Shown in pieces: positions 17,528-19,460 of a DNA stretch of 64,000 nt (its first letter is position 1; each line of letters begins with the position of its first letter). The translations under genes and the position numbers were made by a program. Source of the stretch: Escherichia coli (GTDB taxonomy: Bacteria > Pseudomonadota > Gammaproteobacteria > Enterobacterales > Enterobacteriaceae). The stretch is taken from the NCBI RefSeq assembly GCF_041248615.1, contig NZ_CP158426.1; one strand, 5' to 3'. The notes under the pieces are model-generated. The model was not told the DNA's origin. It made no database searches and saw only the letters and a list, made by a program, of their open reading frames with translations.

Positions 17528-17640
17528 AGTAAAACTCCTGAGCAGGCGGCACTATGCCGCTTTCATAGGAGTTCTGAATGCTGGTGCTTTCTGTATGGCA
17601 TAACCATGCCTCTAACGGTTAAGTGCCTGCAGCACATGTT
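17528..17640. repeat. Copy A of an approximately 110-bp direct repeat (ribosome-binding-site-sequestering hairpin element)
   Basis: aactcctgagcaggcggcactatgccgctttcataggagttctgaatgctggtgctttctgtatggc... is near-identical to 19352-19460; contains nested inverted repeats aactcct/aggagtt and gcggca/tgccgc. Confidence 0.7.
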
Positions 17641-17902
17641 GCGGATCATTGGCAATCGCTCGCAGCAAAGCCTTTGCAGGCCCAGTCGGTGAACGTCGCC
17701 CCTGCTCCCAGTTACGCAACGTGTCTACGCTTACGGAAATAAGTTCGGCAAATTTAGATTGTGACAACCCTGAAGCGCGGCGTATTTCTTTGATTTTCAT
17801 AGCATCAACTTCAAAAGTCCGTGAAGGGTGTCGCGTTCCTTCAATAATTTCATTCATCTGGGCCATGCTGTGAGTCAACCGCTCAAAAAGTGCCTTATCC
17901 AT
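17612..17902 (-). CDS. higA: HigA-2-like XRE-family HTH antitoxin
   Basis: 96 aa; C-terminal HTH (LSQSKFAELISVSVDTLRNWEQGRRSPTGPAKALLR); directly follows, and overlaps the stop of, the RelE/HigB-like toxin gene (toxin-first order, as in V. cholerae HigBA-2 from memory). Confidence 0.7.
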   Translation of the reverse strand: MDKALFERLTHSMAQMNEIIEGTRHPSRTFEVDAMKIKEIRRASGLSQSKFAELISVSVDTLRNWEQGRRSPTGPAKALLRAIANDPQHVLQALNR

Positions 17903-18214
17903 TTACCACCTCGTATTTAACAACCGGAGCATTGCTTTTTCCTGGGGAGACAGATCATCTTTAATACCCTTACGATAAATAAGCAGTAATCTGATCTCAT
18001 AATGTTTAACCTGATGAAAGTAAATAACCCTGACACCAGCACGTTTCCCCTTTCCTCCTGACACCCATCGAACCTTTCTTAACCCACCAGTTTCAGGTAT
18101 TACCTCACCATAGTCAGGATTCAAGGCCAGGAAAAACTGAAAACGACTGAATTCATCGTCGGTCAGCAGTTTTTGAACATCTTCAGTAAAAATTTCCGTT
18201 TCGATGAAGAGCAT
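17903..18214 (-). CDS. higB: HigB-2-like RelE/ParE-superfamily toxin
   Basis: 103 aa MLFIETEIFTEDVQKLLTDDEF...GGLRKVRWVSGGKGKRAGVRVIYF...; this pattern matches remembered HigB-2-type toxins; paired with a downstream HTH antitoxin. Confidence 0.7.
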   Translation of the reverse strand: MLFIETEIFTEDVQKLLTDDEFSRFQFFLALNPDYGEVIPETGGLRKVRWVSGGKGKRAGVRVIYFHQVKHYEIRLLLIYRKGIKDDLSPQEKAMLRLLNTRW

Positions 18215-18430
18215 AATTATACGCCATTGGCTTAGAGTAACAATCCTTTTTGTACGTCATTGACGTACCCTTGAAACCACTAGCTTACTGATAGTGCTCC
18301 AGCAAAACCACGTCTCTGCCGGGTTTGTCTTTACATTTGCGAGGCGCTTTCCAGATTTTTCACGCCCGTGAATTTCCCTGTATCCATCCAGCAAAAACGG
18401 GTGTATAAAACTGTACATTCATACAGCAAA

Positions 18431-19351
18431 ATGAGTTCTACTATGGCACTGGAAAAAGGAATTGCAGAGTTAGTCGAAGAGTTTATCGCTGCGGGTCGCC
18501 CCTCATCGCGTCAACAAAGTATTGCGCAGCGCAGGGAGGGCTATATCGCCAGCGCTGTCCTTGCGGGTGAGACAGAAACGCGGGTAGATATTCAGACTAT
18601 CGAACTTGAAGGGATGATCTTACGAATAGTGTCACCGCTGAATGCCCCGACATTACTCCCGACGATAATTTATTACTACGGTGGCTGTTTTGTTAGCGGC
18701 GGGTTCGCAACTCACGACAACCAGCTGCGCCAGTTAGCCTATTACGGGCAATGTCGGGTTATTGCCGTCCAGTATCGGCTGGCACCGGAACAGACTTTCC
18801 CCGCCGCCCATGATGATGCGCAACGAGGTGCAGAATTAGTCTGGCAACACGCCGAACGACTCGGCGTTGATAAACAACGGATAACTCTTGCCGGTGACAG
18901 TGCGGGCGGACATCTGGCGCTGGTAACTGCTTTGCGATTAAAGCGTGCTGGCGAGTGGCAACCGGCACAACTCATCTTAATTTATCCCATGCTTGATGCG
19001 ACTGCGCATTTCGAAAGCTACATACGCAATGGTCACGATTACATCATCACACGCGACACTTTACTGAGCGGCTTTGAGATGTATCTGCCAGGCATTGAAC
19101 GCAGGCATCCTGAAGCCAGCCCTCTTTGGCGCGATGATTTCAATGGCTTGCCACCTGTACATATCATTACCGCTGAATACGACCCACTTTGCGATGAAGG
19201 TGAAGCGTTGTATCACCGCATGACAGGGCAAGGAGTGCAATGCACCTGCCAACGCTACCTTGGCGTTATCCACGGATTTTTTCAGTTAGGTGGTATCAGT
19301 GAGGCTGCGCGATCGGCGCTGCGGGATGTGGCCTGGAGAGCGGGAAGGTAA
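18431..19351 (+). CDS. Alpha/beta-hydrolase fold esterase/lipase (Aes-like family)
   Basis: GDSAGG nucleophile elbow (GxSxG), upstream oxyanion-hole-like YYGGCF motif, about 300 aa. Start ambiguous (track ORF from 18368; ATGs at 18431 and 18443). Confidence 0.65.
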   Translation: MSSTMALEKGIAELVEEFIAAGRPSSRQQSIAQRREGYIASAVLAGETETRVDIQTIELEGMILRIVSPLNAPTLLPTIIYYYGGCFVSGGFATHDNQLRQLAYYGQCRVIAVQYRLAPEQTFPAAHDDAQRGAELVWQHAERLGVDKQRITLAGDSAGGHLALVTALRLKRAGEWQPAQLILIYPMLDATAHFESYIRNGHDYIITRDTLLSGFEMYLPGIERRHPEASPLWRDDFNGLPPVHIITAEYDPLCDEGEALYHRMTGQGVQCTCQRYLGVIHGFFQLGGISEAARSALRDVAWRAGR

Positions 19352-19460
19352 CTCCTGAGCAGGCGGCACTATGCCGCTTTCACAGGAGTTCTGAATGCTA
19401 GTGCTTTCTGTATGGCTTCGCTATGCCCCTCGCGGCTAAGCGCCTGCACACATCTCTCTT
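19352..19460. repeat. Copy B of the approximately 110-bp direct repeat
   Basis: aactcctgagcaggcggcactatgccgctttcacaggagttctgaatgctagtgctttctgtatggc...; same orientation as copy A, about 1.8 kb away. Confidence 0.7.

Follow-up and report, generated by a model that had tools for sequence, protein, structure and literature searches.

We analyzed a 64,000-nucleotide stretch of Escherichia coli DNA (contig NZ_CP158426.1 of assembly GCF_041248615.1; hereafter the window), in which two near-identical direct repeats, here called copy A and copy B, bracket an antitoxin gene (nadS), a HigB/RelE-like toxin gene (higB) and an esterase gene, together referred to as the toxin-antitoxin (TA)-esterase block. 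The repeated unit is probably a native chromosomal intergenic segment that was doubled by recombination between haplotypes, and that carries on its minus strand a leader whose hairpin occludes the ribosome-binding site of a gene for a 70-residue protein (small gene 1). Copy A would be the working copy of this leader and copy B a relic. The bracketed TA-esterase block appears to be an old resident of the locus, and the gene for a 614-residue protein that lies beside copy B appears to be the newcomer. The coordinates of all features are collected in Table 1.

The repeated unit and its fold

A repeat finder reported two direct repeats of 99 nt with 89% identity (17533-17631 and 19350-19448), a match that blastn lengthened to 105 nt (17533-17637 against 19350-19453; E about 1e-31 to 1e-33) with an overall identity of about 88%. 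The repeat pair described in an earlier note on this DNA, made from the letters alone, is real, and these are its true extents in place of the 17528-17640 and 19352-19460 given there. That note had also described some 70 bp of near-exact match followed by scattered mismatches, and this is what the alignment gives, with 2 differences in the first ~67 nt and 9 plus one indel in the last ~38 nt. Both copies contain the noted inverted repeat AACTCCT...AGGAGTT around an inner stem GCGGCA/TGCCGC, which form a two-tier hairpin of 41 nt. The hairpin pattern occurs exactly twice in the 64 kb of the window and in none of 100 shuffles, and the two hairpins have folding energies of -18.8 and -22.2 kcal/mol (z -4.8 and -5.3). 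At its right end, copy A covers the last eight codons and the stop of nadS (17612-17637), while the left edge of copy B falls within the stop codon of the esterase gene.

A probable hairpin leader for the 70-residue protein gene

Read on the minus strand, AGGAG (17535-17539) stands 7 nt ahead of the ATG of small gene 1 at 17527, this ATG lies 5 nt past the hairpin, and the AACUCCU arm is 27 nt upstream of the AGGAGUU arm. The role proposed earlier for AGGAG on this strand, as the ribosome-binding site of the 70-residue reading frame, is borne out, and the general description of a structured element with a ribosome-binding site occluded in a stem is supported. A translational control leader, one of the identities that had been offered for the unit, stands for small gene 1 on the minus strand, with copy A alone in a functional context, and falls for the plus strand.

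Comparison among genera ties the hairpin to small gene 1. The unit occurs downstream of nadS only where the 70-residue protein gene is present, that is, in E. coli, three Pseudocitrobacter and Klebsiella spallanzanii, and its hairpin part is there about 85-90% conserved versus about 73% for the neighboring genes. Genera that do not have the small gene carry unrelated terminator-like hairpins after nadS, and the hairpin therefore belongs to the small gene and not to nadS. In 14 chromosomal sequences both helices are paired in 96% of cells, compared to 33-51% in slid controls, and both of the one-sided helix changes give G-U pairs on the minus strand where the plus strand would have A-C mismatches.

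The same architecture recurs in more distant relatives, and the hairpin accompanies the small gene into contexts that have no upstream nadS. Of 20 leaders taken from chromosomes, plasmids and viral contigs, all 20 have the two-tier fold and place the Shine-Dalgarno site in its 3' arm, and their outer and inner helices come in at least 8 and 12 different sequences, respectively. Examples of the outer helix are ACUCCAA/UUGGAGU, CUCUGGGUAC/GUACCUGGAG, CUCCGAAAAGA/UCUUUUCGGGG and UUUCUUCAUAU/AUAUGAGGAAG, and the inner helices are equally varied; in L091, a Salmonella-associated contig (retrieved loci carry L numbers), the inner helix reads GGGGCA/UGCCCC instead of GCGGCA/UGCCGC. The helices of these 20 leaders were delimited by hand from single-sequence folds, and a MAFFT alignment of the diverse leaders, being structurally wrong, was excluded from the pair counts. 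A covariance model seeded with seven chromosomal leaders and L091 gave matches directly upstream of the gene in the non-seed loci L104, L106, L141 and L093 (E 1e-3 to 3e-3); with this narrow seed, it reached only the nearer non-seed leaders. One viral contig (L102; IMG/VR UViG_2848576382_000019, positions 374-493) has a homolog of the leader and small gene and, upstream of them, only codons 1-40 of a nadS-like gene, at 62% identity, and the linkage of nadS, leader and small gene therefore reaches a more divergent locus.

The hairpin might instead be chiefly a terminator or insulator at the 3' end of higB-nadS, and of the 614-residue gene in genomes that carry only a B-type unit, its overlap with a ribosome-binding site being incidental. 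We consider this unlikely, though it deserves some weight. The hairpin lies 38 nt past the nadS stop, in E. coli and Pseudocitrobacter a U-run (UUUUACU, UUUUGUU or UUUUGUC on the minus strand) comes after the stem, and ordinary terminator-like hairpins occupy the equivalent place in the genera that have no small gene. Against a terminator, the hairpin was not called by a consensus terminator scan, and copy B in the window has no U-run. K. spallanzanii and most of the plasmid and viral leaders also have no U-run, yet the Shine-Dalgarno site stays in the 3' arm, and the hairpin follows the small gene where there is no nadS upstream.

An upstream reading frame and the proposed coupling

The leader of copy A also contains a 12-codon upstream open reading frame (uORF) on the minus strand, whose length, frame and stop position are identical in E. 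coli, the three Pseudocitrobacter and K. spallanzanii. Its product in Pseudocitrobacter is M[A/E]SRKQRHSELM and in K. spallanzanii MMNRKFQYSELM, each ended by the stop codon. The changes among the three genera in the Arg codon (AGA, AGA and CGG) and the Lys codon (AAG, AAA and AAG) are synonymous, and nucleotide conservation over the first eight codons is poor. The uORF is preceded, at a distance of 7-9 nt, by purine-rich ribosome-binding sites just past the nadS stop, and the last codons (TCA GAA CTC xTx TGA) are on the 5' arm of the hairpin.

A promoter scan found a promoter-like site ahead of higB (18243-18216; 10/12), the only good one in the region, and none between nadS and the hairpin, so small gene 1 and the gene that follows it (small gene 2) are probably on the transcript of the TA operon. 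We propose that the two small genes would be read from the higB-nadS transcript by read-through, and that the hairpin would close the Shine-Dalgarno site of the small gene. A ribosome finishing the uORF at its TGA would then sit on the 5' arm and free the Shine-Dalgarno site, and expression of the small genes would thereby be coupled to translation of the uORF. Through its U-run, the hairpin could possibly also act as a weak terminator or attenuator in E. coli and Pseudocitrobacter.

This arrangement resembles the leaders of secM-secA, ermC, ermB and cat, in which a short uORF, equipped with a ribosome-binding site of its own, extends into the 5' arm of a hairpin whose 3' arm holds the downstream Shine-Dalgarno site. 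The E. coli leader differs from these in that it has no known stalling motif or inducer and in that its peptide, xxRKxxHSEL[LM], is unrelated. The uORF stop also falls just past the 5' arm, and opening coupled to termination would be as likely as a programmed arrest. In phage MS2, translation of the upstream frame opens the structure hiding the next start at the coat-replicase and coat-lysis junctions. The likeness to MS2 is that upstream translation would be needed for opening; the difference is that here a dedicated 12-codon ORF takes the place of a structural gene, and that the system is chromosomal and DNA-encoded.

A more ambitious reading would make the leader a dedicated switch at the tail of the HigB/NadS operon, one that makes expression of two small phage-type proteins depend on toxin activity or on the translational state of the cell, with the TA and small genes forming one unit such as a phage-defense or anti-defense module. 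Toxins of the HigB type cleave A-rich codons within ribosomes engaged in translation, and an Arg-Lys pair encoded by AGA-AAG, AGA-AAA or CGG-AAG is retained in the uORF. We hold this reading to be quite doubtful.

Haplotypes and origin of the duplication

A copy-number census of 5,426 complete E. coli genomes found the unit in 3,369, with a maximum of two per genome and a median of one, and at all loci that were retrieved and inspected it lies between yiiE and fabY. Four haplotypes are distinguished. The A-only haplotype (flank, copy A, nadS, higB, esterase, fabY) is found in about 2,340 genomes, for example O104:H4, and the B-only haplotype (flank, one B-type unit, 614-residue gene, fabY) in about 740, for example O157:H7. 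The two-copy haplotype occurs in 329 genomes, the window and strains 7/2 (NZ_CP023820) and A10 (NZ_CP028764) included, and about 2,020 genomes, such as K-12, have neither copy. The TA-esterase block is exactly absent from B-only genomes; single-copy strains with precise absence of the module, for which the earlier note had proposed looking, thus exist as the O157:H7 type. K-12 retains just a 5' stump of the 614-residue gene region (window position 21270 onward), and its locus is therefore a deletion derivative of a B-type locus.

The TA-esterase block is shared across the Enterobacteriaceae, well beyond E. coli. A scan of genomes for NadS showed the order fabY-esterase-higB-nadS-fdhE to be kept in Salmonella arizonae, Enterobacter, Citrobacter, Kluyvera, K. 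spallanzanii and Pseudocitrobacter, and synteny of the block between fabY and fdhE extends to at least 8 genera. Nucleotide identity across genera is about 70% for the module and 80-87% for the flanking genes. In A-only genomes the 3' flank of the esterase gene reads GGTAACTCCGGACC... followed by the palindrome GTTTTCAGATTGAAAAC, and this flank is recognizably common to Pseudocitrobacter; the A-only junction is therefore ancestral and the junction of esterase and copy B in the window derived. The ancestral flank and the edge of the unit, GGTAACTCCGGACCAGG and AAAACTCCTGAGCAGG, have AACTCC exactly in common (6 nt) and agree at 12 of 14 positions overall. A joint on a 6-nt microhomology suggests illegitimate recombination between haplotypes.

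Copy B itself bears marks of decay. Its hairpin is intact, its uORF has lost the start and gained an in-frame TAG, and no ATG follows the ribosome-binding site, which leads instead into antisense esterase sequence. At its other end copy B retains a nadS 3' stump of ~25 nt with no stop codon, and in B-only genomes it is contiguous with the 614-residue gene. All B-type units have one nadS breakpoint in common (...ATGTG-TGCAGG...), and the truncation therefore happened once. The stump is graded among B-only genomes, through L089, L090, L003/L087 and L088, and copy B of the window represents the most derived state.

From these observations we propose three steps. In one lineage, the 614-residue gene would first have taken the place of most of nadS, higB and the esterase gene, producing the B-only haplotype with its 25-nt nadS stump. 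Recombination between B-only and A-only chromosomes, with a homologous crossover on the fabY side and an illegitimate one at the microhomology, would then have generated the two-copy haplotype, and loci of the K-12 type would have arisen from B-only by deletion. The bracketing of the TA-esterase block by repeats would thus be merely a by-product of haplotype stacking. The proposed event resembles homology-facilitated illegitimate recombination and the haplotypes of E. coli hotspots, where the two crossovers fall in conserved flanking sequence and at a short microhomology, respectively; such an event would stack two cassettes and double the border between them. The suggestion that the repeats are recombination scars delimiting a 1.8-kb module was right in substance, as module-free single-copy strains exist. 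A mobile TA and esterase module between the repeats is not supported, the block being ancestral.

The two-copy state could also be the older one, with copy B a local duplication of copy A made on insertion of the 614-residue gene between esterase and fabY; B-only genomes would then be later homologous A-by-B deletions, and A-only genomes would have lost copy B together with the 614-residue gene. B-only loci join the left flank of copy A to the right flank of copy B exactly as an A-by-B crossover would, some B-only units (L089) resemble A/B mosaics, and the near-identical first ~67 nt would be enough for RecA. We nevertheless find this order of events rather improbable. The A-only esterase-fabY spacer is common to Pseudocitrobacter, which makes A-only ancestral and no derivative, and a simple insertion beside the esterase gene leaves the nadS 3' stump in copy B unexplained. 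Copy B of the window moreover matches the far end of the B-only gradation, its most derived state; L088, the closest B-only unit, has a hairpin variant unlike both window copies; and the esterase/B joint lies on a microhomology typical of illegitimate joining.

Several variants were observed around these haplotypes. A 390-bp segment with most of the 70-residue protein gene (window 17084-17473) is missing in many E. coli; in such genomes the flank corresponding to 16794-17083 is just 74-79% identical (compare L003, L005, L006 and L007), and E. coli as a species harbors highly divergent alleles of this flank. In O157:H7, the leftover start of the small gene is frameshifted. In L005 (E. coli ECNB21-M121, about position 5062), the insertion sequence (IS) ISKpn26, which is IS5-like, lies inside a B-type unit ~50 nt from its left edge, truncating the unit and deleting most of the 614-residue gene. 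The palindrome GTTTTCAGATTGAAAAC is kept in the ancestral E. coli esterase-fabY spacer (L002; L006 6836-6896). Similar tandem palindromes lie in Pseudocitrobacter and Citrobacter werkmanii (L010, L021, L017) between esterase and fabY, just 5' of an ORF beginning MHVISRKPF that is HigB-like by eye, and the E. coli palindrome looks like a relic of the operator of that ORF.

Points against the reading of the unit

Several points weigh against the reading of the unit as a doubled native segment with a leader occluding a ribosome-binding site. Among the 14 chromosomal sequences, the hairpin helices lack any double compensatory change, and the covariation comes from hand-delimited helices in distant leaders, outside any formal test. 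Family-wide, pairing of the Shine-Dalgarno site is 0.61 versus 0.60 in shuffles (n = 40 non-redundant leaders), and the leader is therefore a trait of an enterobacterial subfamily. The chromosomal-type uORF is absent from the plasmid and viral leaders examined, which have other upstream ORFs or none, and in many E. coli alleles the uORF is broken, by an early stop in the O104-type allele, or the small gene is frameshifted, indicating that the system is decaying in E. coli. We infer every functional step of the switch from sequence. With respect to the duplication, the order of events could differ, with B-only loci being A-by-B deletion products of a two-copy ancestor. Over the 38 nt nearest nadS the copies diverge by 25%, a high value for drift within a species, and copy B may accordingly have been imported.

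The plus-strand frames and mobile-element identities

On the plus strand, each copy contains a 14-codon ORF that reads as the earlier note had written it (17578-17622 and 19395-19439), and each copy could accordingly encode a 14-residue peptide with a sequestered ribosome-binding site, whether as a small-peptide gene, a leader or a type I toxin-like locus. Both copies have AGGAG, 6 nt and ATG in order, the stop position is kept, and the z scores of the plus-strand fold are low (-4.3 and -3.0). As a peptide gene the frame fares badly: five of the seven codons that differ between the copies are non-synonymous, the start (CAT/ATG) is lost in K. spallanzanii, and AGGAG has become ATGAG in Pseudocitrobacter and K. 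spallanzanii. Positions that form G-U on the minus strand would be A-C mismatches in a plus-strand pairing, and the frames have no plus-strand context in common, one being antisense to a gene start and the other lying past the esterase stop. A type I toxin is further contradicted by the lack of conservation of the 14-mer as a peptide and, on the other strand, by a 70-residue protein that is basic and Cys-rich and not hydrophobic. Codon for codon, the plus-strand frame mirrors the conserved minus-strand uORF in antisense and is an artifact of that mirroring; we reject a plus-strand peptide as very improbable.

A mobile or site-specific recombination element, be it a miniature inverted-repeat transposable element (MITE), an IS end, an integron attC site or the attL/attR sites of an island, is barely credible as the identity of the unit. 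Such elements share with it direct repeats around a gene block and an imperfect palindrome, and RefSeq labels part of the neighboring 614-residue ORF as a transposase. The unit differs from island att sites, attC, REP, ERIC and MITE in being confined to a single locus with no recombinase, in flanking an ancestral block and in having no attC core. A MITE or another named repeat (REP/BIME, ERIC/IRU) does not agree with at most two copies per genome at one locus, and none in genuine plasmids or phages. The only inverted repeat is moreover the internal hairpin, and the ends of the unit are the 3' end of a gene and a ribosome-binding site. An IS end or a prophage attachment site, both named in the earlier note as possible known identities, is not supported either. 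The unit comes with neither transposase nor integrase and has no terminal inverted repeat, and the module between its copies is ancestral, with synteny kept across genera. No integrase ORF was found in 14.7-23 kb of the window, no terminal inverted repeats were found around 19454-21748, and comparison of the 614-residue ORF with Pfam, NCBIfam and PHROGs gave no transposase signature. By sequence inspection, the unit (GGTAACT ... GTTCTGA) does not fit the attC consensus RYYYAAC ... GTTRRRY, and there is no intI.

A blastn search of a plasmid collection with the unit returned just four matches, all in Escherichia records of 1.0-4.9 Mb that are apparently chromosomal sequence filed as plasmids, the unit was absent from phage records, and a pattern scan of IMG/VR found none. 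Rfam gave no match at the unit even at E<=10, and none at 11 related leaders at E<=1.

The surrounding locus and the small-gene family

The window has the gene order fdoGHI-fdhE-yiiF-yiiE ... fabY(yiiD)-dtd, with the repeats between yiiE and fabY. From yiiE to fabY the order is the 92-residue ORF (small gene 2), the 70-residue ORF (small gene 1), copy A, nadS, the toxin gene, the esterase gene, copy B and the 614-residue ORF. The antitoxin gene called higA in the earlier note is nadS, and we infer the toxin assignment of its neighbor from gene order with nadS.

Table 1. Features of the repeat locus, in coordinates of the 64,000-nucleotide window.
Feature	Position	Strand	Description
Repeat copy A	17533..17637	-	Probable native nadS-to-small-gene intergenic segment: nadS 3' end, uORF, hairpin, ribosome-binding site
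Two-tier hairpin, copy A	17533..17573	-	Outer helix AACUCCU (17567-17573) with AGGAGUU (17533-17539, holds the ribosome-binding site); inner helix GCGGCA/UGCCGC
12-codon uORF, MPYRKHQHSELL and stop	17563..17601	-	TGA at 17563-17565, just past the arm pairing with the ribosome-binding site; 14-codon version from 17607
Repeat copy B	19350..19453	-	Apparent decayed relic of a copy-A-type segment
Two-tier hairpin, copy B	19350..19390	-	No start codon downstream; based on fold and pattern count
Derived esterase 3' flank/copy B junction	19344..19363		Ancestral flank GGTAACTCCGGACCAGG, unit edge AAAACTCCTGAGCAGG
Small gene 1, 70 residues	17315..17527	-	Basic, Cys-rich, motif TPCxCSCWMCGH; served by the ribosome-binding site of the hairpin
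Small gene 2, 92 residues	16975..17253	-	Recurrent downstream partner of small gene 1; hypothetical protein in RefSeq
nadS, helix-turn-helix antitoxin	17612..17902	-	NF041265 NadS, 60.4 bits vs cut-off 60; RefSeq annotation
HigB/RelE-like toxin gene	17903..18214	-	phrog_5869, E 6e-27
Alpha/beta hydrolase (hormone-sensitive-lipase-type esterase)	18443..19351	+	TAA stop overlaps the first bases of copy B
614-residue ORF	19520..21364	-	AT-rich, contains CKSAKDRT; probable newcomer gene, always accompanies copy B

The region of the 614-residue ORF has a G+C content of 36-42%, compared to 54% in the flanks. The protein has no match in Pfam, NCBIfam, PHROG or the PDB, and its homologs are confined to E. 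coli and Shigella, where all are annotated as hypothetical. In several strains RefSeq annotates the ORF as two pieces, one a pseudogene and the other a "transposase", and the transposase label is unsupported. A SopB/IpgD-like phosphatase was also considered for this ORF, its sole basis being a CX5R-like motif, and is likewise unsupported.

The 70-residue protein matches phrog_4499 (E 1.2e-13), and homologs of about 50% identity occur in 432 phage records, chiefly of T5-like phages. The gene is also carried on Klebsiella, Salmonella and E. coli plasmids, and 1,634 cluster representatives match the protein profile. The conserved motif of the family is RRHH..RLK..R..Y ... TPCxCSCWMCG.xR ... QE.RA. 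The protein has no Pfam match, and its AlphaFold model, which is helical with a predicted local distance difference test score (pLDDT) of 80.7, has no fold match in the PDB. A gene of the 92-residue type follows small gene 1 in L020, L091, L094 and L120-L126. This partner is ~92-97 residues long and ends in ...RPQIY.Y, and the two-gene module is seen on chromosomes, plasmids and viral contigs. On two E. coli IncF plasmids, pSJ_82 and pEC0430-1 (L095, L097), the small gene and its hairpin leader have an AbiGi-family gene on one side and a gene for an Avs4 anti-phage nuclease on the other, neighbors that may hint at a role of the small gene in phage defense or counter-defense.

Elsewhere in the window, an 84-nt direct repeat with 81% identity (16174-16256 and 16612-16695) lies ahead of both CopG-family genes, the yiiF-like gene and yiiE, and probably represents their paralogous 5' regions. 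A match of the Rfam Thr_leader/Phe_leader models to the second 84-nt copy is below threshold (21 bits against a gathering score of 55) and probably due to chance. In E. coli 06-00048 (L090, positions 1-572), a VapC toxin gene follows the yiiF-like CopG gene, a neighborhood that suggests yiiF and yiiE are orphan antitoxin genes elsewhere.

Conclusions

The uORF-hairpin leader of the 70-residue family is apparently unannotated and uncatalogued, and of a known regulatory kind. We found nothing relevant in the literature on the locus, on NadS or on such a leader, and no long-standing question hinges on the leader or on the haplotype series. The repeat itself is ordinary, and its interest is in showing that a stack of two alternative haplotypes can look like a mobile cassette with terminal repeats. 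Its ~70 bp of near-identity between copies A and B would be a substrate for RecA-mediated loss of the TA-esterase block, and the four haplotypes provide a clean natural series for gain and loss of a TA block. The leader, for its part, fronts a widespread family of small proteins with no Pfam entry, found in T5-like phages, on plasmids and on enterobacterial chromosomes.

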